Assembly: GCA_000004985.1 (NCBI GenBank)
Contig: GG738907.1
Source: Naegleria gruberi
Lineage: Eukaryota
Length of the DNA stretch: 64,000 bases
Reading direction: 5' to 3' (one strand)
A program made the translations under genes and the position numbers. Shown here piece after piece: positions 2,792 through 59,608 of the stretch (within the stretch, counting starts at the first letter, position 1; each line of letters begins with the position of its first letter). The notes below the pieces were generated by a model. It was not told the DNA's origin and did no database searches. It saw only the letters and a program-made list of their open reading frames with translations.

Positions 2792-4591
2792 TTAAGGTTT
2801 TGGGTCTTCAGGTTCATCTCTTGCTTTTGTATTGTCTCTTGTTTGAAGAGTATCTTCATCTTCTTCAATGATTACAATTTCCTCCTCATTGGAAAGGATA
2901 ATTCTTTGAGAGTTATTTTCTTGTGAAATTTGCAATTCCTGCTGGGTAGCCTCTTCTTCTTGTTTAAGTACTATTCTAACTGATTCTGGTTCTGTAGATG
3001 TACTAGATTTAGGGTCTGCTGGTTCTGTTTGAACAAGTAAAAGAGGATCTGGTTTTGTGACCACATCAGGAGAGATCTTTCCCAAAATTTTTTGCCATTC
3101 ATCATGCCACGATCTATAGGATCTGATCTTTTTCAAATCGTCAACAGGTCTTTTAAAGTAGAGACTGTCTACAAGCTTCGAGTGGTCCGCCTTCTTCTTT
3201 CCCTTATCTGTTAAATGGTTAAGAACTTGAATAAATCCATCCCGATAGATTTTTGTTCTCTTCCTCCAAATCATCTTGAAAATAAAGTCTGAATTGAGTG
3301 GTAAACCTAAATCAAAATAGGTCATTTGGCAATATCTAGTTTTACCTTCATGAGTTCTAGTAAAGATGTGATAGAACAAGCCAGGAGCTTCTACATAGTT
3401 TTCTGTTTTCTTATTTTCCTCTTCTGATAGATATTTTGATGTAATAGATGGGTCCACAGATTTACCAACATTAATAAATGCATCCAAACCATCATCCCAG
3501 ACAGTACAGTAAATGTAATCATAAACTCTCTTTTTCAGCAAAGGCATAGACAAGTCAATAACTGTTCTTCCATAAGTTTTTCCAAAATAGTTACTACCAT
3601 CTTCTTGCACTTGTGGTGATGGTGGTGTATAATGTACAAAAGTATTTTCACTGAACGACAGAGGATCATAAATTTTGTGGAAATCTCCATGCCAAAACAT
3701 TGCCCAACAATCTTCAAGTGCATAAGGGAGAAGCATTACTGTCTTTGCTAATTTCATTCCCTTCATTTTCTGTGGATCGAAAGAATAAGTCTCTTTCGAA
3801 AGATAGCATTGTGTATTGTTTTCATCAAAAAAAAGTTCCCAATCAGGTGTATCCTCTGCTAGTGTGAAACCAAAGTAAATATCACTGTCTGTTACCACAT
3901 CCTTCCTCAAATCTTGAGGCTTAAATCTCAAATCTACTTTATACCCTTTAGAAATATCAAAGGCCATTTGCCTCATAAACTGTTCTCCCTTTCTCTTAAA
4001 GAAAGTTTTACAAGCGTTTGAACGAACAAATCTTGGAAATTGGTCCATCTTTAAATCCAAATGAACCTTTTCAATAACATCACGGAATAAATTAACAGGA
4101 TGTAACCTTGTTATCAAATCTGAAAGAGCTTGTAAATCTTCAACCTCCTCAGATTTTCCAATTAGATTTTCAAACTGTTTGTGAATACTCTCCCAATTCG
4201 CCAAGATTTTTGCCTTATTCCATCCCAAATTGAGTTGGTAGCTTGAGTTTGGTTTTAAAAAGTGATCATATATCGCACCTGCTGAATGTTTAAGCTTTGT
4301 CAAGTCTGAAATAACTCGGGAGAGATTAGAATGTGAATTTGAGCTAGTGGTAGGAATGGTGGTACTTGCGACACATACTACACCACCTAAGGTACCCAGA
4401 GTAGATCTAATCAGAGGAGCCAGACATCCAGTTTGATCTCTCCTAGTAGTAGTGGAGGTGTTACTGTTAGCAATATTGTTTGGAGTTGTGTTTTGTATGT
4501 TTGGCTTTGAGCTTGGTGAGGCTGGAGAAGTTACCATTTCAGCTGGGTGTTGTGTAGTGTCGCTTGTGAGAACCATTTGTGGGAGTGTCAT
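2792..4591 (-). CDS. RGS-domain protein, C-terminal ~600 aa (probably the same gene as 4633..5325)
   Basis: 599-aa ORF. Its reading frame stays open upstream to ~4714, overlapping the RGS-bearing ORF in another frame, which points to a single gene with one frameshift in the poly-N/T-coding repeat. Confidence 0.7.
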   Translation of the reverse strand: MTLPQMVLTSDTTQHPAEMVTSPASPSSKPNIQNTTPNNIANSNTSTTTRRDQTGCLAPLIRSTLGTLGGVVCVASTTIPTTSSNSHSNLSRVISDLTKLKHSAGAIYDHFLKPNSSYQLNLGWNKAKILANWESIHKQFENLIGKSEEVEDLQALSDLITRLHPVNLFRDVIEKVHLDLKMDQFPRFVRSNACKTFFKRKGEQFMRQMAFDISKGYKVDLRFKPQDLRKDVVTDSDIYFGFTLAEDTPDWELFFDENNTQCYLSKETYSFDPQKMKGMKLAKTVMLLPYALEDCWAMFWHGDFHKIYDPLSFSENTFVHYTPPSPQVQEDGSNYFGKTYGRTVIDLSMPLLKKRVYDYIYCTVWDDGLDAFINVGKSVDPSITSKYLSEEENKKTENYVEAPGLFYHIFTRTHEGKTRYCQMTYFDLGLPLNSDFIFKMIWRKRTKIYRDGFIQVLNHLTDKGKKKADHSKLVDSLYFKRPVDDLKKIRSYRSWHDEWQKILGKISPDVVTKPDPLLLVQTEPADPKSSTSTEPESVRIVLKQEEEATQQELQISQENNSQRIILSNEEEIVIIEEDEDTLQTRDNTKARDEPEDPKP

Positions 4592-4632
4592 GGTGTTATT
4601 ATCATTCGCGATAATAATACCTGTATTGGCAA

Positions 4633-5325
4633 TTATTGTTGTATTGTTATTAGTGTTAGCATTTGCAGTGATTGTAGTGGCATTATTATTATTATTGTTA
4701 TTTGTTGAATAGTGGTGCTAGCACTCGTTGCCCCACTAGTGGTGATAGATACATTGTCAGCAATAGTACCAATTTGACTGCTGGTGGTGTTAACACTGCT
4801 TGATAGGGATGATGGTTGTTGTTGATTGGTAGGTGTGGATGAATTATTATTCTGAATATTATTATTATTGCTCGTACTGCTATTGGATGAGGTAGTTGTC
4901 GTTGTTGCTGTGGAGGGATTAGTAGAGGAAGTAGAAGTAGAATTTCCAGAAGAAAAGACCGCTTGAAACTCCTTTCTACTATGCATGCTCTGATAACTGG
5001 CAACATATTCATCGGTCATCTTTAAAAACTCAAAAGGTTCTTCACTACATTCTCCTGATTGTACTTTGCGGAAAAGGCTTCTAAATTCTGGGTTTTTGAT
5101 TGCCTCTTCATAAATAATTTCATAATTATCAGGATGAAAAGCCTTTTTGTTTGAATTAGTTGGAACTGATGGAACAACAGTAACAACATCCGATTCAGTC
5201 ATGGTATCTGTGTGTGCAGTTGTATCATTTTGAACACCATCACTTTCTGATGAAGTATTGGTGCTCGAGAAGGTATTCAAACTATCATCGGACATGAATG
5301 TGTGATTAGATGTTATTGTTGACAA
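4633..5325 (-). CDS. RGS-domain protein, N-terminal part
   Basis: 230-aa ORF with an RGS-like block (EAIKNPEFRSLFRKVQSGECSEEPFEFLKMTDEY). It sits in a different frame from 2792..4591. Confidence 0.65.
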   Translation of the reverse strand: MSTITSNHTFMSDDSLNTFSSTNTSSESDGVQNDTTAHTDTMTESDVVTVVPSVPTNSNKKAFHPDNYEIIYEEAIKNPEFRSLFRKVQSGECSEEPFEFLKMTDEYVASYQSMHSRKEFQAVFSSGNSTSTSSTNPSTATTTTTSSNSSTSNNNNIQNNNSSTPTNQQQPSSLSSSVNTTSSQIGTIADNVSITTSGATSASTTIQQITIIIIMPLQSLQMLTLITIQQ

Positions 5326-17089: not shown

Positions 17090-17657
17090 ATGCAAAGACT
17101 ACTGATTCATAGTACTTCACCTCTACCTGATGACGAGGAGTCTCAGGTGATGATGAATTCACCATCGTCAAAGATTCTATCAAATAATCTTTGTCATTCT
17201 GCAGCTCAATCACTAACTAATAATACCTCACCTATATTACTGACAGACAAACTTAAACCAACAATATCCAATGGACAGAAACAAGCCATAGAATGCTCAA
17301 CCAAGCTGCTGTTCATTCTCTCTTTAGTAAGCCTTTTAGCAATGCTCTGTTTAACCATCCTGAGTACATCATCTTCATCATCAACCTCAGTGGCCAGCAC
17401 TAAATTATCTGTAAATGTAATGCACAGTGGTGAATTTATCAGTGTGGATGAATCATTTGTTGTGAAGGCAAGAGTCTTTCCAGTCACTTATCTGGATGTA
17501 GATTTTTCCAATCCAGAAAATCTAAAACTGAATAGGGTGAGAGGTATTTGCAAAATTTATCTATCTACCTACTTTATGTTTAATTATAATGAAAGAAGAT
17601 CATCCTATAATCCTCCTACTGTTATTGGTGCCGATGGTTTGGGAGAGACTCCATACA
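17090..17657 (+). CDS. type II membrane protein, putative glycosyltransferase-like, exon 1
   Basis: Signal-anchor segment (LLFILSLVSLLAMLCLTIL) and a GTAAGT donor at 17658. Confidence 0.6.
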
Positions 17658-17707
17658 GTAAGTAATAATCTCATTATACTTTTCATCACATGTTAATAAT
17701 TTGATAG

Positions 17708-17979
17708 CACATTGGAAGAAAATAGAGAGAACACTTCAATTCCTAACAGGAGAGGAATCAAATTATATAAGTGATAACGATATCGTTGTGTTTAGTGATT
17801 CAACGGATGTGTTTTTCATTAATAATATTGAGGAAATAAGAAATGTCTATGAAAATTACTATGTGAAGGAATTAGCTAAAATTGATTTGGAAGCAGATGC
17901 AGAGAAGGATTGGCCATTAGTATTCATTGCCGAGAAGAATAAGTGGCCTCCAAATGAGTATATTCAAAACATGTTCGAG
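17708..17979 (+). CDS. putative glycosyltransferase-like protein, exon 2
   Basis: Bounded by acceptor TTGATAG and donor GTAAGT. Contains the VVFSDSTDVFFI DxD-like motif. Confidence 0.55.
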
Positions 17980-18035
17980 GTAAGTGCAATGCATTCAAAT
18001 CACATCTTAACATTCCTTAATAATTATTCATTTAG

Positions 18036-18641
18036 AAAACACAAGAGGAAACGGAAATGGTGAAAAAACACTATTACAACAAGGATGGATATCATGTTTA
18101 TAATAATTGTGATAGATCCAATCAGAGAATTTATCTGAATAGTGGTCTCTATGTAGGAAGAAAACGTGACATTAGAAAGGCCCTCACCATTGGAATTAAT
18201 ATCAAGAGAGCAGAGCCAAAGGAAAGATTGGGAGATCAAGCCGTCTATCAGTACATTTACACAACCAAAAAGTATCCAATTCTTATGGATTGCGAGTACA
18301 AAATGTTCTTCAGTCCATTCTCTGTTTGCCATACTGTTGTTAGTAATCCTGCAAGCAAGTGGTCATGTTCAATTAATGAAAATAATAAGCCAACACCAAA
18401 TACTGTTGTAGCTCTGCACTCTAATGGAGGATTTTGTCCCTCATTGTGTAATTGTTTCAGCTCGATGAAACAAAAGGGTTCCTTCAAGAAGATGCTCACT
18501 CAATACAAGGACACTATGAGTTTCAAATCCTATGATATCAACACAAAGAAGGTGACTGATGTGTTGATGGACTATGCTTGTGGACGCTTTGTTGAAGAGA
18601 ATTTCCCACAAAAATCCTGCAATGTTCAACCTGGCAAGTAA
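18036..18641 (+). CDS. putative glycosyltransferase-like protein, exon 3 (to stop)
   Basis: Acceptor TTTAG is followed by a continuous 202-codon frame, and phases are consistent with exons 1-2. Confidence 0.55.
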   Translation, partial: KTQEETEMVKKHYYNKDGYHVYNNCDRSNQRIYLNSGLYVGRKRDIRKALTIGINIKRAEPKERLGDQAVYQYIYTTKKYPILMDCEYKMFFSPFSVCHTVVSNPASKWSCSINENNKPTPNTVVALHSNGGFCPSLCNCFSSMKQKGSFKKMLTQYKDTMSFKSYDINTKKVTDVLMDYACGRFVEENFPQKSCNVQPGK

Positions 18642-19750: not shown

Positions 19751-19796
19751 CTATTTCACATATAATTACAATAAAAATATTTCAAAAATTACAAAC

Positions 19797-23502: not shown

Positions 23503-24402
23503 TTATTGTTGAGCACCTGTTGATTGAGTAGTAACAGTATTAGCAGTATTTCTTGGTTGTCCTCTTCCTCCTCTATTTCCACCACGTCCACCTCTTCCTC
23601 TACCTCTTCCACGAGGTCTGCTCATACCTCTTTGAGCAGCACCACCAGTTTGTGCAGCACCTGAAGTTTGAGCAGTACCACCAGTTTGTTGTTGTTGTTG
23701 AGCAGTTTCAGGATTTCTTTGACGTGGTTGACGAGTAGTAGCAGTGGTAGTAGTAGTTGCTGTTGTAGTAGTAGTTGCTTCTCCACCAGTTTGTTGTTGT
23801 TGTTGTTGTTTACGAGTAGCACCACTTCTGAATCTTCTTCTTCTCTTTCCAGCAGCAGCACCTTCACCTCCAGCACCAACAGGAACCTTCTTAGTAGAGA
23901 TGATTTGTGGAGCAGTGACTTGATCAGCTGGAATTGGTGGTTGATAACCCAAGTCAGAAGTATCCAAAGCCTTCTTTGACAATTTAATAACAATAGAACT
24001 GACAGTACGCTTCTTGGTAACAACATCCATACCTTCTTCCTTTGGTTCGTATTGATCTTCAATTTCTTGTGATTCGATGGAAGTAATTTGATGCAAGCCA
24101 GCAACTCTTCTCTTCAAAACCTCAGCAATGGTAACAGCCTTTTGAATAGCCTTGCCCATAGCCTTCAATACAACAGTATCGAATGGTTCGGATGGAGTTT
24201 GGACATCTTTTTCTTCCTTTTGCAAGAGAGTTGGATCTAACAAACCAACAGCATAGGAAATGTAATTTCTACTTCTACCTTGAGCGGTAATTCTAATTTC
24301 ATTCTTTTGAATTTCATTGTTGTTGTTATTGGAAACACCACTACCACCAGTAGCACTTGAAGCCTTGTTGCCAACCTTCTTATAGACGTTTGATGAGGAC
24401 AT
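23503..24402 (-). CDS. Alba-like nucleic-acid-binding protein with RGG/Q-rich C-terminus
   Basis: Alba fold blocks (NEIRITAQGRSRNYISYAVGLL...VVLKAMGKAIQKAVTIAEVLKRR) and a C-terminal RGRGRGRGGRGGNRGGRG tail. Confidence 0.75.
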   Translation of the reverse strand: MSSSNVYKKVGNKASSATGGSGVSNNNNNEIQKNEIRITAQGRSRNYISYAVGLLDPTLLQKEEKDVQTPSEPFDTVVLKAMGKAIQKAVTIAEVLKRRVAGLHQITSIESQEIEDQYEPKEEGMDVVTKKRTVSSIVIKLSKKALDTSDLGYQPPIPADQVTAPQIISTKKVPVGAGGEGAAAGKRRRRFRSGATRKQQQQQQTGGEATTTTTATTTTTATTRQPRQRNPETAQQQQQTGGTAQTSGAAQTGGAAQRGMSRPRGRGRGRGGRGGNRGGRGQPRNTANTVTTQSTGAQQ

Positions 24403-24751: not shown

Positions 24752-25558
24752 ATGAACAACATTGTTACGAGAATCCTTCTTCTCTATCACATCATCTTCT
24801 TTTCATATCTTATCTCTCTATCAATACAACAAACAATGATATCGATTGAACCGAGACAGAATTATGCTCTTTCATCAAAGGCCTTTCGATACGGATACTT
24901 TTATATGAGTTATGAAAAATTGGCATCCTCACAGGCTGGATTTAGAGTTTCCAAGAATGTAAACAATCCCACTTCGTTGAATTTGGATTATTTACCAACA
25001 GGTGATGGATACAATTCAAATTTTGATGATAGCACGGCTGTTGTTAGCTCTATAATCAAGTTGATACAATTTTCAAATCCGATTGATTATTATTTTGTCC
25101 TGTTTAATCCATCATTGAGTGAGACTAGTAATGTGACGATTCATTCAAAAATTGTGGAGACCTATAGACCTTTTTCATTGTCGAGCATGTATTTTACGTA
25201 TTTGCAAAAAGGAGAAATTGAAAAGACATCATGTCCTTCAACTATTTCTCCGTGCATTGATATTACTAATTCAAAGTTTTATATTTCTGTTAATCCATCT
25301 GATATTTCATCAGCTCAGTACAAGAATAATTATCCAGTTAATTTGGAAATTTATGTGCAATATTCAGCAAGTGCTGTTAATTCAAATGGTGAATTGATTT
25401 TAGATGCCACTTCACCTTTTACCACTATCTCTTTGAAATCATCACAAGATTCTGCATCTATCACTGTACCAGTTCCACAAGGAGTTTTACAAGTTACAAA
25501 TGCAAAAGATGTAAAGCCGTACTTGTGGTTTAAATGTTTAGATGCTAATTATATGTAG
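24752..25558 (+). CDS. transmembrane Ser/Thr protein kinase, extracellular domain (signal peptide plus ~240 aa)
   Basis: Signal peptide plus an ectodomain ORF ending at TAG 25556-25558, immediately before a TM segment encoded in the +1 frame. Confidence 0.55.
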   Translation: MNNIVTRILLLYHIIFFSYLISLSIQQTMISIEPRQNYALSSKAFRYGYFYMSYEKLASSQAGFRVSKNVNNPTSLNLDYLPTGDGYNSNFDDSTAVVSSIIKLIQFSNPIDYYFVLFNPSLSETSNVTIHSKIVETYRPFSLSSMYFTYLQKGEIEKTSCPSTISPCIDITNSKFYISVNPSDISSAQYKNNYPVNLEIYVQYSASAVNSNGELILDATSPFTTISLKSSQDSASITVPVPQGVLQVTNAKDVKPYLWFKCLDANYM

Positions 25559-25560
25559 AG

Positions 25561-26544
25561 GCACCATGTTCTTTCGGATATACCATTACTAATACTCCTG
25601 CCACTGATTCGTCTAATTCATCAGCTGTTATTGGAATTATTGTTGGCATTGTAGCTGCCTTAATAGTATTGATTGTAATTCTCATTCTAATAGTTTTTGC
25701 TTTCTTTATGTATAGAGTTAAGAAGGCCAAGATTGGAAATAAGAAAGTTACAGATCCAAACGCAAACAATCATCAAACATTACAGCCTATTCAGCAAGTT
25801 GATCCTATAATTCAAAATAGACCTGTTATTAATATTGATTCAATTCCATCATACAAGTCAGATAATAGGTCAGATAATGGAGCACCCATTGCCTCCTATG
25901 TTCCTCTATCTAATACGGATTCGAAAACCTCAACCTTAACTGGACTCACCAATAGTTTCAATTCACCAATGGATTCAACACCAACCCCCACTCAGCCTCA
26001 AAGTGAACAAGGTGATTTATTGAATATGAGATACAAACCTATTGAAAAGATTGGAAATGGATCTTTTGGAATTTGTTTCCTTTGTCAAGACACAAAGAGA
26101 AATAATCAGCTAGTCGCTATTAAGGGGATTAATTTAGAAAGCAACGATCAAGAGAAGATTATTTCAGAACTTTCAAAATCGGCTACCATTCAACACCAAA
26201 GAATTGTGGAAGTTTATGAATTCTTTGTTTCCAAACAAATGAATGCATTCTGTCTTGTGATGAAATATTATAGTGGAGATTTGGAAAGATGTGTGTTGAA
26301 ATATGGAAAAATAATGCCAGAAATTGTTGTCATTCAGCTTTTGAAACAATTAGGAGAAGGTTTCGATTATCTTCACAGAGTAAAGCAAGTAGTTCATAGA
26401 GATGTGAAACCGAGAAATATATTTGTAAATAATTTTGATGAGCTGAATAATCAAATATCAGTTGTTATTGGAGATTTGGGTGAATCCAAAGAACTGTTTG
26501 TTCAAGAAAACACGATGAGAGGTACAGTTCTTTACATGGCTCCA
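25561..26544 (+). CDS. transmembrane Ser/Thr protein kinase, TM plus kinase domain exon
   Basis: TM segment (IIGIIVGIVAALIVLIVILILIVFAFF) followed by kinase motifs GNGSFG, VAIK, HRDVKPRNIF, DLGES and MAP. Donor GTAAGT at 26545. Confidence 0.7.
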
Positions 26545-26589
26545 GTAAGTATATTCTTAATTGATTTACATATTAAGCAATTTGTTTAG

Positions 26590-26871
26590 GAAGTATTTAT
26601 TGGAAAGTATGGATTCCCTGCTGATATTTTCTCATTGGGTGTCAGTCTTTATCATGTCATGGTTGGAATGAAAAACCTAAATGTGCCAATTGGTCAGCAA
26701 ATGCTAGCCAGCTCTGAACAGGAAATTAGTTCCAGAATGAGGGAAGAAATGCTGAAATTAGGATACAGTGATAAGCTTGTTGATTTTGTAATCTCCATGA
26801 TTCGTGTTAATCCTAATGATAGACCAACAGCAGAGCAAGTCAAAGCATTCACACCACTCGATTTGGCGTAA
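26590..26871 (+). CDS. transmembrane Ser/Thr protein kinase, last exon
   Basis: Acceptor TTTAG. Splicing restores the APE motif (MAP|EVFIGKYGFPADIFSLG) and subdomains IX-XI. Confidence 0.7.
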   Translation, partial: EVFIGKYGFPADIFSLGVSLYHVMVGMKNLNVPIGQQMLASSEQEISSRMREEMLKLGYSDKLVDFVISMIRVNPNDRPTAEQVKAFTPLDLA

Positions 26872-26946: not shown

Positions 26947-28347
26947 TTACAAAACAGCAATCTTACCAACAAGAACTGCTGAATTGGTTGGTTCGTGGTG
27001 CAAAATAAAAGCAAATGGTCTATCCAAAACAAAATTAGAATCATCTTGTTCTCTTTCTTCAACAAGTTTGGCATTTTCTGGTGTGATTTCACCTTCAACA
27101 GTTCCTAATTCACTGAATTCAATAACAGTCTTGTGGAAAAACTCGTTTAATCTCCAGAATTCAGGGACTGTTGTTTCAGTTTGAGTTGGTGGTACTTCAA
27201 CAGGAGCAGTTTCATTGGTTTGAGTAGAGTTGACCTTCTTCTTCTTTGGTTCAACCTTTGGGAACAAGGAAGGTGCAGAAAATGTCTTGGCTCTCAATAA
27301 TCCAGAAATCTTGGACTTGGATTCAACTCTGAATTTTGGAATTGAAATCTTCTTGAAAAACTTTTCCTTAGTTGGGAATGAGCATGAAATACATCCAGAA
27401 TCCAATTGACGATTAACAAATCTATTAAATCTTTCTTCAGAATCACCATAAAGACTGAGAGCATCCTTTGGAACAATGAAAAGCATAGAATATGGAGCAT
27501 CCTTATATTTCAACTTGATCCATTGGAAGTTCTTTTGTTCTCCATGTTCAAATGATGAATTGTGTTGATTCATCATTTCAATTTCAATATATTCCACAAC
27601 ATCTTCATCAGCAGAGGAAATTACTCTGAACAATTCAATAGAAGTATCATTCAAATCGAATGGCTTTTCCCATTTTCCAACAAATAAACCAGTATCAGCA
27701 TAGATAGCTTGAGTAGCATTAGTAATAAAACCAGTTCCAATAAATGCAGTTGTTGTTTCATTATTCTTTTCAGAAATAATTCTATTCATCATCTTTCTAC
27801 TCTCATTAGCAGCTTCATCAGTTGTAAAATTACATGATTGAATAAGAAGATTCTTCATATAGAGATTATCCTTCTTAAAACCAGTCTTGGCAAGGAATTC
27901 CTCAGAGGCAAACAATGCAGGAGTCAAAATCAAACGTGCCTTTTCATCATTTAACATGTCAGTTTCATGTGAAAATTCAACAATTGATTGCATTGAATTC
28001 TTCAATTCACCCAAATTAAACTTGCTCAACAAGGTAGTCAATTCTCCTCTCTTTGGATCATCTTTTTCACATGCTTCCAAAATAACAGACAATGAATAAC
28101 CAAGTGAAATCGGAGAAAACATTACATTTTGAAAATGATCCATGATTGAATTGGTTATTAAATTACGCATAATTTTACCAGAAAGTTTAACATTTTCACT
28201 TCCAATTATTCTAGTTGGAGTTTCTAGATTTTCCACAATTGGAATGTTTGATTGTAAATTAATGTCAGCTTGAGATTTGATGCCAACAATTATACAACAA
28301 CAACATAGGAGGAAAAATGAGAGTTTGAGAGTAAATGATGTTGCCAT
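26947..28347 (-). CDS. serpin (serine protease inhibitor), secreted
   Basis: 466-aa ORF with a signal peptide and a reactive-centre-loop region, ending in the serpin signature FVLDRPFAFILHHEPTNSAVLVGKI. Confidence 0.8.
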   Translation of the reverse strand: MATSFTLKLSFFLLCCCCIIVGIKSQADINLQSNIPIVENLETPTRIIGSENVKLSGKIMRNLITNSIMDHFQNVMFSPISLGYSLSVILEACEKDDPKRGELTTLLSKFNLGELKNSMQSIVEFSHETDMLNDEKARLILTPALFASEEFLAKTGFKKDNLYMKNLLIQSCNFTTDEAANESRKMMNRIISEKNNETTTAFIGTGFITNATQAIYADTGLFVGKWEKPFDLNDTSIELFRVISSADEDVVEYIEIEMMNQHNSSFEHGEQKNFQWIKLKYKDAPYSMLFIVPKDALSLYGDSEERFNRFVNRQLDSGCISCSFPTKEKFFKKISIPKFRVESKSKISGLLRAKTFSAPSLFPKVEPKKKKVNSTQTNETAPVEVPPTQTETTVPEFWRLNEFFHKTVIEFSELGTVEGEITPENAKLVEEREQDDSNFVLDRPFAFILHHEPTNSAVLVGKIAVL

Positions 28348-57049: not shown

Positions 57050-58059
57050 TTATTGCAAAACTTCCATGGTAGCTTCGACATCTCCATGTTCATTGGAGAA
57101 CAACATTTGTCTTTCGGCCAAATTCTTATAGATACCATGTTCAATGGCCATCAATTCAGCATGGGTACCAGTTTCTTTCAAAATACCCTTAGCCAAGACG
57201 CAAATCTTGTCAGAATTTCTAACAGTGGACAATCTGTGAGCAATACAAATAGTTGTTCTTCCCTTCATCAACAAGTCCAAAGCAGCTTGAACGAGAGCTT
57301 CAGATTCAGTATCCAATGCAGATGTGGCTTCATCCAACAAGAGAAGCTTTGGATCTTGCAACAAGGCACGAGCAATACAGACACGTTGCTTTTGACCACC
57401 TGAGAGTGAGACACCACGTTCACCCAATAAAGTATTGTATCCATCTGGCAAGTCCATAATGAAACTGTGACAGTTGGCAGATTTGGCAGCTTCAATAACC
57501 TTTTCCATTGTAGTATTTTCTTCACCAATAGCATATGCAATATTCTTGTAAATGCTGGTAGCAAACAATACAGGTTCTTGAGTGACAATACCAATATTCT
57601 TGTGGAGCCACATTGGATCGATTTCGGCAATATCAACACCATCAAGATAAACCTTACCCTTAGCTGGATCGTAGAATCTTTCCAATAAACCAACAATTGT
57701 TGATTTACCTGAACCAGATGGACCAACCAAAGCAACAGCTTGACCGGCCTTAATATCCAAACTGAATTCCTTCAAGACAGTAACATTTGGACGTGATGGA
57801 TAAATAAAGTCAACATTTTCAAATCTGACATTACCAATGATACTATCAAGAGTTTTACCTCCCTTGAAAATAATAGCTGGCTTTCTCTTCAACAACTTCA
57901 AGACAGTCTTTTGAGAAACCATGGCCTTACCATAATCAGGGAAGAATGAACCAGCTTGTGAAATACCAATAATAGCAAACAAGGTTAAACCGAAAACCTT
58001 GAGCATAGATCCGATATTCATGGTTCCTTCAACAACAAGACCTCCACCATACCAGAAAG
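57050..58059 (-). CDS. ABCB-type half transporter, exon 3 (NBD, to stop)
   Basis: Walker A (GPSGSGKST), ABC signature (LSGGQKQR), Walker B (LLLLDEATSALD) and H-loop. Confidence 0.85.
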
Positions 58060-58105
58060 CTAAAATAAAATTATTGAGCTAATTTGAAATAATTAAAAAA
58101 CATAC

Positions 58106-58803
58106 CCAAAGCAGTAGTACCCCACAAGATACCAACCAAAATACCAAAAGTAGAACCTTGAGCAACAGCTTTACCAATACCAGCCAAATACATCTTGGTC
58201 AAGTCCTTCTTGTATCTGACTCTTTCCTTTTCTTCTCCGGCCATTGATCTTACAGTTCTCATAGCTCCCATCACTTCAGTAGCAATGGAGGCACTATGAT
58301 CGTTGGCCTTATTAATTGCCAAAGTTAACTTTCTGATAATACCCCCGAGGAACACTACACCTAGAATCATCAATGGTGTAGTACTCATCATGACAAGGGC
58401 CATTTGCCATCCTGATGTCAAGGCAAGAATGACACCAATCAAAAATTGTGCCAAGTTTTGAAGTAAAGTAGCCATTTTGACAGAATAAATTTCTTGAATA
58501 CGAGTGATATCTTCTGAAAGTGTAATGGTCAATGCACCAACCTTCTTAATATCAAAGAAGCCCATCTCTTGAACTGTCAATGAATCAAAGTAAGCACTTC
58601 TAATAGCAACACCAATTCTTTCACTGGCCCAGTTCAAGAAGAATTGAGACATGAAATTGGCAATGCAAGCAGCAGCTGCAATAATGGCAAAGTATGAAGC
58701 ATAGACTCCAATTTCGGCCTTTTGTTGCTCTGGAGTAACAGTTGATCCATCTGCACGTGTTGGTGAAAAGACATTGATTAAATCTCCCATAACAAATTGG
58801 AAA
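58106..58803 (-). CDS. ABCB-type half transporter, exon 2 (TMD)
   Basis: Bounded by acceptor CTAATAG and donor GTATGT. Encodes TM helices ending ...LWGTTAL|AFWYGG, a conserved ABCB junction. Confidence 0.8.
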
Positions 58804-58853
58804 CTATTAGATTCAACAATATTAACAATCGGAATGTTAGTATAATTACATAC

Positions 58854-59143
58854 CTAATTGGAATCACACCAGTACCCATAGCTCCGATGCTTCCCAAGAA
58901 TACTAATATCCAATTCCATCCTATAATTTTATAAATTGTAAAACCGTCTTTAAATGTAAGATTTGGTTCTCTTTCATCAGGAATTTCCTCGGAATCTTTC
59001 TTTTCTTCTTCTTGTTTCTTCTTTCTCTTGAAAGGATTTCTTGATTTTCTTTCCGTTTGTGGTTGTTTCTTATCTTCCTTAATTTCTTGTTGTTGTGCTT
59101 TAACTTCCACCACATCAACAACTAATTCATTGTTTGCCGACAT
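58854..59143 (-). CDS. ABCB-type half transporter, exon 1
   Basis: True ATG at 59143 (the ORF tool used an upstream GTG). Basic/acidic N-terminus, then the start of TM1 (GWNWILVFLGSIGAMGTGVIP). Donor GTATGT. Confidence 0.7.
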
Positions 59144-59608
59144 GTTGTGTTCTATATACAAAGATGATTGTGTATTATCCACTATTATTATTCAAATTTC
59201 AAATTGATAGGAAGACCTAAAAGTTGAGTGGATAACAATTCGCTTGTTTTTTTCTGTTGTGTTTTTAATTTTAGTGGAGAGAATCTCAAGCACGTACAAT
59301 TTTCTTCCATCTAGAAGAGATTCAATTGCGACTGCAAGTCATTTGATGTTGTGACTATCATTGAAATGGTGGCGCACTTGTGGGTGTTGGTATTCAATAG
59401 TGCGGTAGGCACGCTTATAGCGAAATTGTTCAACGCTTATAGCGCCAATGTGTCTAACGGTAAGAAAAAACCCGCTCTTTAGTTGAGACTTTAGAGAGGG
59501 AGCATGAGATTTTTGAGTGAGGATAAATCCTATACTATTAATACAATACAATTACACAGTGTTAAGATTATCAATATTCTTTAGATTCATTGTTTTAGGG
59601 TTATGAAT

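Follow-up and report, generated by a model that had tools for sequence, protein, structure and literature searches.

Architecture of the receptor kinase locus

The stretch of Naegleria gruberi DNA analyzed here, 64,000 nucleotides (nt) of contig GG738907.1 from assembly GCA_000004985.1 (the window), carries a gene for a receptor-like transmembrane (TM) Ser/Thr kinase whose ectodomain and kinase domain are read in different frames. The gene is NAEGRDRAFT_73730 (XP_002671174 / EFC38430), and the spliced product considered here is identical to the deposited protein except in the exon model. The surrounding 64-kb sequence is AT-rich, with a GC content of ~0.31-0.37. An earlier, first-pass annotation, made by inspection of the sequence, had called the gene a receptor-like TM Ser/Thr kinase, a description that proves correct.

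The encoded parts follow one another in the order expected of a type-I receptor: a signal peptide, an ectodomain of ~290 residues with four cysteines, a TM helix, a long linker rich in Ser, Thr, Asn and Gln, and a kinase domain. All of these elements are present and collinear with those of an ortholog in N. fowleri, but in the N. gruberi sequence they are divided between two frames. The start codon and a signal-peptide-like N-terminus (MNNIVTRILLLYHIIFFSYLISLSIQQT) occupy 24752..24835 on the plus strand, which carries every feature of this gene; the N-terminus of the N. fowleri ortholog is also hydrophobic. Coding sequence for the ectodomain in the upstream frame spans 24752..25555, amounts to 267 sense codons, contains the cysteines of the motifs TSCPS, SPCID and FKCLD, and matches no Pfam family. 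The rest of the juxtamembrane ectodomain (VEAPCSFGYTITNTPATDSSNSS) lies in the downstream frame at 25555..25623 and holds the fourth conserved cysteine. It is followed at approximately 25624..25713 by the TM helix (AVIGIIVGIVAALIVLIVILILIVFAFFMY) and a basic stop-transfer sequence, RVKKAK. Both the signal peptide and the TM helix were assigned by eye and from an AlphaFold helix (model residues 259-301).

The Ser/Thr protein kinase domain spans 26032..26844, split by a 45-nt intron. The gene ends at a natural TAA stop (26869..26871), and the C-termini of the N. gruberi and N. fowleri proteins align. Pfam Pkinase (PF00069) matches in a single stretch covering profile positions 1-258 of 263, at 154 bits against a cutoff of 31.7. 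The translation contains the catalytic motifs: the Gly-loop (GNGSFG), the Lys of VAIK, the HRD...N motif (HRDVKPRN), D[FL]G (as DLG) and APE. Among solved structures, the nearest to this domain are CDPK/CAMK and STE20/MST kinases (E ~1e-23), and receptor-type kinases are absent from those matches.

Besides the N. gruberi entry itself, the sole full-length relative of the spliced product is N. fowleri FDP41_009771 (XP_044556790 / KAF0972075; CAG4709585), an uncharacterized Ser/Thr kinase with 31% identity over 98% coverage; the remaining protein matches are generic kinase-domain matches. No ectodomain relatives outside Naegleria were found by protein, HMMER and metagenome searches. An exhaustive HMMER search with the 268-residue upstream open reading frame (ORF) against 1.84 billion representatives returned 0 matches, the N. 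fowleri ectodomain used as a query recovered only itself, and the two-species alignment, used to search metagenome loci, yielded 191 pattern matches, 0 of them confirmed. A word-indexed alignment search likewise returned no matches, missing even both input proteins, and says nothing about ectodomain relatives. Structure prediction with AlphaFold2 for the repaired ectodomain plus TM helix, from a two-sequence alignment, gave a poor model (mean predicted local distance difference test, pLDDT, 50.7; predicted template modeling score, pTM, 0.40) that was not used as evidence; it places strands over KPYLWFKCL and GYTI, in addition to the TM helix. Literature searches on N. gruberi splice-site statistics, kinome and heterozygosity turned up nothing specific to NAEGRDRAFT_73730.

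Single-pass receptor-like Ser/Thr kinases are familiar from Entamoeba, as the transmembrane kinases (TMKs), and from plants, as the receptor-like kinases (RLKs). The N. gruberi protein would share their topology, in which a signal peptide and an extracellular domain are followed by one TM helix and a cytoplasmic eukaryotic protein kinase domain, but the CXXC or leucine-rich repeats typical of those proteins were not noticed in its ectodomain by eye, without a repeat search, and we do not claim membership of either family. The locus is probably a single-copy, Naegleria-specific gene that ancestrally comprised one coding sequence; its product would be aptly described as a type-I receptor-like Ser/Thr kinase restricted to Naegleria, with FDP41_009771 as its N. 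fowleri ortholog.

A frame break within a conserved cysteine loop

An ORF of 268 residues begins at ATG 24752 and extends to 25558, terminated by a premature TAG at 25556..25558. A second frame is open from 25549, directly after TAA 25546-25548; it begins APCSFGYTITN and encodes the TM helix, linker and kinase. The first-pass annotation had reported both a signal peptide and 268-residue ectodomain closed by this TAG and a TM and kinase frame open from 25549, and the ORF analysis bears it out on both points. The frames thus overlap by 10 nt, 25549..25558 on the plus strand (TTATATGTAG), an interval open in both and bounded by the TAA on one side and the TAG on the other. Across the break, a trans-frame peptide would read ...CLDANYVEAPCSF..., which may also be given as CLDANY(x)VEAPCSFGYTITNTPATDSSNSSAVIG.

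Two details of the earlier description need to be amended. The shift is not +1: codon starts fall at 2 mod 3 upstream and at 1 mod 3 downstream, so that, measured against the ectodomain frame, the kinase is read at -1 (equivalently +2). Nor does the break coincide with the boundary between ectodomain and TM helix; it lies ~22 codons upstream of the helix, within a conserved Cys-loop. The minimal repairs are the addition of one base or the deletion of one TA from TATAT (25550-25554). In all likelihood, then, the lesion falls in 25549..25558, where either a base has dropped out or the TATAT run has a TA too many. It is the only lesion in the gene: the downstream frame has 342 + 93 codons free of stops, all motifs are intact and the natural stop is conserved. 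We therefore reject an old, decayed pseudogene, which the single lesion, the retained catalytic motifs and the conserved stop do not fit.

The N. fowleri ortholog reads through the break

The counterpart gene in N. fowleri is an uninterrupted ORF of 2172 nt in two independent assemblies (GCA_008403515.1 and Logan SRR29240419). FDP41_009771 has the same collinear architecture as the N. gruberi gene, sharing the hydrophobic N-terminus, four aligned ectodomain cysteines, the TM helix, a low-complexity linker and the kinase domain. It differs in having neither the frame break nor an intron between YM(A/S)P and E, both of which are found in N. gruberi. The latter is an instance of intron presence/absence difference between the species, the 45-nt intron at 26545-26589 in N. 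gruberi being missing from the ortholog. Orthology rests on the collinear full-length match, since the neighbors are not syntenic: a Kelch protein and an AMP-binding protein flank the gene in N. fowleri, and Alba and serpin genes flank it in N. gruberi, with no match between the two sets.

This comparison bears directly on the 50-nt segment 25511-25560, which runs from GTAAAG to TAGAG and which the first-pass annotation had put forward as an intron joining the two frames. Over the break, N. fowleri 'YMAVKCLNPSGTVCNFAFSVSN' pairs with N. gruberi 'YLWFKCLDANY' and, past the break, 'VEAPCSFGYTITN'. By MAFFT and BLASTP, the N. fowleri sequence 'AKSM--YMAVKCLNPSG---TVCNFAFSVSN' stands against 'AKDVKPYLWFKCLDANYxVEAPCSFGYTITN' in N. 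gruberi, and the alignment traverses the candidate intron in the ectodomain frame before proceeding in the kinase frame. The in-frame translation of 25511-25560 is homologous to N. fowleri MYMAVKCLNPSG, a conserved cysteine included, and the part of the N. gruberi protein that bears this coding-homology argument is VKPYLWFKCLDANY.

Removing the segment makes the match to the ortholog worse. BLASTP reports one high-scoring segment pair over the break, at 33.5 bits (E=1e-6), which drops to 29.3 bits once the 50 nt are excised, and in a global alignment test the score falls from 74 with the segment in place to 65 when it is cut out. A score of 74 was reached by 9/3000 random stop-free 15-mers from the same 64-kb sequence and by 34/2000 shuffles. 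The four cysteines of the mature ectodomain (C-x6-7-C, then KCL...C-x-F) all align between the species only if 25511-25560 is coding; excision loses the third and leaves three. Given the alignment to an intronless ortholog and the conserved cysteine, we conclude that 25511-25560 descends from coding sequence.

The ortholog also informs the possibility that the gene is functionally split, with a secreted ectodomain protein of 267 residues and an independently initiated kinase made by design. The upstream ORF is indeed complete from signal peptide to stop, and the kinase frame does offer an ATG where the TM helix ends (FAFFMYRVKK). Such an arrangement would, however, interrupt a conserved Cys-loop, leave a cysteine unpaired, and either orphan the TM helix or keep it from being translated. 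The two frames overlap, which affords no room for an intergenic spacer or a promoter, and in N. fowleri the ortholog is a single fused protein. We regard a designed split as very improbable.

The candidate intron compared with introns of the window

The kinase domain of the same gene supplies one bona fide spliceosomal intron for comparison. At 26545..26589 on the plus strand, a 45-nt, phase 0 intron (GTAAGT...TTTAG, GC 0.20) lies between YMAP and E; its removal restores 'YMAPE' and completes the kinase domain. The first-pass annotation had described that domain as complete, a view that the Pkinase match (E=6.6e-45) supports and that holds only after this separate intron is taken out.

Further intron-like junctions of the window are found at 17658-17707 (plus strand, 50 nt), 17980-18035 (plus strand, 56 nt), 58804-58853 (minus strand, 50 nt, GTATGT...AATAG, containing TACTAAC), 58060-58105 (minus strand, 46 nt) and 19751-19796 (minus strand, 46 nt). 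The reference set is small, comprising six junctions at which two long ORFs need joining, and most came from a scan that demanded G at donor position +5: the first scan accepted GTA[AT]G donors only, while the second accepted any GT and added the GTTTGT case. Three of the six were checked by domain or ORF continuity, namely the kinase intron and two introns of an ABC transporter gene. That gene, at 57050-59182 on the minus strand, encodes an ABC half-transporter (ABC_membrane + ABC_tran) whose product reads through once 58804-58853 and 58060-58105 are removed. At 17090-18641 on the plus strand, three consecutive ORFs are connected by the 17658-17707 and 17980-18035 introns; a Pfam scan of the first and third of these ORFs gave no match.

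Set beside these introns, the candidate at 25511..25560 on the plus strand, which in frame encodes VKPYLWFKCLDANYM, resembles an exon. Its GC content of 0.32 equals the exon level (0.33-0.39 for exons of this gene), as against 0.15-0.27 for the reference introns, and it lacks any AT-enrichment over its flanking exons. The earlier description of a 50-nt, non-AT-rich segment whose removal joins the frames is accurate as far as it goes; what fails is its interpretation as an intron, which ortholog homology, splice signals and chance expectation all leave unsupported. The six reference junctions use GTAAGT, GTATGT or GTTTGT donors and TAG acceptors. The candidate uses a GTAAAG donor, lacking both the G at +5 and the T at +6 that all the other junctions share (most of these were found by requiring +5 G), and a GAG acceptor. 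That acceptor sits 2 nt past the TAG, whereas an acceptor at the TAG itself would keep the dead frame, leaving the reading frame unrestored.

How readily would such a solution arise by accident? We simulated 2100 random 1-nt deletions in 14 other long ORFs of the 64-kb sequence. A frame-restoring GT-AG pair spaced 35-120 nt was available for 99% of these deletions, and one spaced 40-60 nt for 82%. Demanding a GTAA donor reduced the proportion to 39%, and a GTAA donor together with a length of 40-60 nt to 15%. The 50-nt GT-AG solution is thus no better than chance, since 15% of simulated deletions receive an equally good rescue. In a genome that is AT-rich and has short introns, as here, a chance frameshift will almost always have a GT-AG pair of suitable length close by, and such solutions need transcript or comparative support before they are called introns.

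Nor is the candidate the sole GT-AG solution, as had been claimed. Donors at 25466, 25472, 25484 and 25493 also restore frame when joined to the AG at 25560, and the donor at 25536 does likewise with AG 25624, 25654 or 25693. Between KCL and CSF, a GC-AG intron or a very short one was considered and rejected, the only GT...AG pairs there being 4-6 nt long.

We reject 25511..25560 as an ancestral intron, and consider it unlikely that the segment is truly spliced, be it as an old intron or as a recently intronized coding segment in which a cryptic GTAAAG/AG pair rescues the frameshift. In favor of splicing, excision yields an open product of 674 residues with a complete Pkinase match, the length falls within the local short-intron class of 45-56 nt and is typical of short introns in N. 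gruberi, a CTAAT branch-like motif lies at 25545-25549 (11-12 nt upstream of the candidate's AG), and the same gene has another intron that N. fowleri is without. These points must be set against the segment's homology to coding sequence of the intronless ortholog, with one of the four conserved cysteines inside it, and against the exon-like composition, splice signals and chance frequency described above. Were the segment spliced, the product would be a 674-residue receptor kinase with 17 ectodomain residues fewer.

The deposited gene model

The NCBI/JGI model NAEGRDRAFT_73730, from N. gruberi strain NEG-M, describes the same locus with identical shared exons, and resolves the break in another way. 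It hides it with a 158-nt 'intron', GTTTAG...AATAG, from the GT at 25536 to the AG at 25693, which joins '...YLWFK' to 'FFAFFMYRVKK' in a protein of 610 residues, and it begins at Met29. This solution has the standing of a deposited model, obeys the GT-AG rule and restores the frame. Even so, it is very unlikely to be right. The proposed intron deletes most of the TM helix along with the third and fourth conserved cysteines, all of which are retained in N. fowleri, its GTTTAG donor is weak and its GC content of 0.34 exon-like, and the stretch removed is an open frame homologous to the TM region of the ortholog. The start at Met29, for its part, drops the signal peptide. Both features conflict with the ortholog, and the deposited model has both the start and the end of the ectodomain wrong.

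Recoding

The first-pass annotation had also raised programmed frameshifting or readthrough. We know of no programmed frameshifting reported from Heterolobosea. Here, a ribosome might shift by -1, or tRNA-Tyr might hop by +2 from UAU 25550-52 to UAU 25552-54 ahead of the UAG, and the unedited mRNA would then yield the full receptor kinase. The geometry is compatible with this, with two frames overlapping by 10 nt, the overlap ending in a stop codon, a UAUAU sequence on which tRNA-Tyr could re-pair at +2, and a gene that is otherwise intact. The overlap 25549-25558 contains neither a slippery heptamer of the form X XXY YYZ nor a homopolymer. No stable stimulatory structure was found downstream of the break in RNA 25540-25660: its minimum free energy of -18.8 kcal/mol corresponds to z = +1.33, with 183/200 shuffles folding at least as well. 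The frame break is not conserved, the N. fowleri ORF being plainly continuous, and a +1 shift at AUG-UAG would miss the kinase frame. That leaves the +2 re-pairing of tRNA-Tyr on UAUAU as the one conceivable event; it has no supporting signal, and we consider programmed recoding extremely improbable.

Two related mechanisms were rejected outright. Stop-codon readthrough or a reassigned TAG would leave the frame as it is, and transcriptional slippage would lack a homopolymer at 25549-25558 on which to act.

A probable small indel in a conserved coding segment

The reading that we favor, and hold to be probable, is that a conserved coding segment has been broken by a small indel, and that the locus harbors neither an unusual intron nor a recoding signal. 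Ancestrally, the coding sequence would have been continuous through 25511-25560; a very small indel within 25549-25558 (TTATATGTAG) would then have separated the reading frame of the ectodomain from that of the TM helix and kinase. The first-pass annotation had listed a sequencing indel or a pseudogene among its alternatives, and it is these that the evidence favors.

As there is one lesion only and everything else is intact, the lesion is either artefactual or very young. We have a slight preference for an artefact of a draft assembly, be it a consensus error or the capture of a single allele, over a very recent mutation, the cause being a matter of inference; the NEG-M reference is a Sanger whole-genome shotgun draft. 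A very recent frameshift mutation of the sequenced strain, possibly heterozygous, is also possible. Naegleria has been described as mainly heterozygous diploid (PMC9928731), and a heterozygous frameshift allele could therefore have been captured by the consensus.

Several observations weigh against this account. The comparison involves one orthologous species and a 15-residue segment, and its significance is modest, with an empirical p of ~0.003-0.02 and a gain of ~4 bits. The branch-like motif and the typical length of the candidate intron are as noted above, and 25511-25560 may be used as a cryptic intron. The site is not a homopolymer, where consensus errors are commonest. As for independent N. 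gruberi data, an exact look-up of the 268-residue ORF and of XP_002671174 in a contig index and a 29-nt exact DNA search of metagenome contigs both returned no match.

If the lesion is real, translation would stop at TAG 25556-25558, giving a truncated secreted ectodomain without its fourth cysteine, and no membrane kinase would be made. As a real mutation, the frameshift would show only that the receptor is dispensable in this axenic laboratory strain. It is distinctly improbable that a genomic frameshift is both real and rescued by the cell, whether through splicing of the 50 nt or, less likely still, through the +2 tRNA-Tyr hop. Should the splicing nonetheless prove true, it would catch a conserved coding segment in the course of 'intronization', its conversion into an intron being the response to a frameshift, and the receptor kinase, 17 residues shorter, would carry one unpaired ectodomain cysteine. 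On the small-indel reading, the finding matters chiefly for annotation; the gene is otherwise an ordinary frameshifted or mis-assembled one.

Neighboring genes and a second frame switch

Elsewhere in the window, at 4591-4633 on the minus strand, the ORFs 4633..5325 and 2792..4591 switch frame within low-complexity sequence, an (AAT)n / poly-Asn run. Of the two, the downstream one, 2792..4591, has a weak match to the RGS domain. No canonical short AT-rich intron is available at this site, where the only donors are GTGGGG or GTGCTA, and the switch may reflect another small indel or frame disruption in this 64-kb sequence, one that could be of use in estimating how frequent indel errors are in the assembly.

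The receptor kinase gene itself is flanked by two genes on the minus strand. At 23503-24402 lies a gene for an Alba-domain protein with a long C-terminal tail that is rich in Gln and Thr and in RGG, and at 26947-28347 one for a 466-residue serpin with a hydrophobic, signal-like N-terminus.

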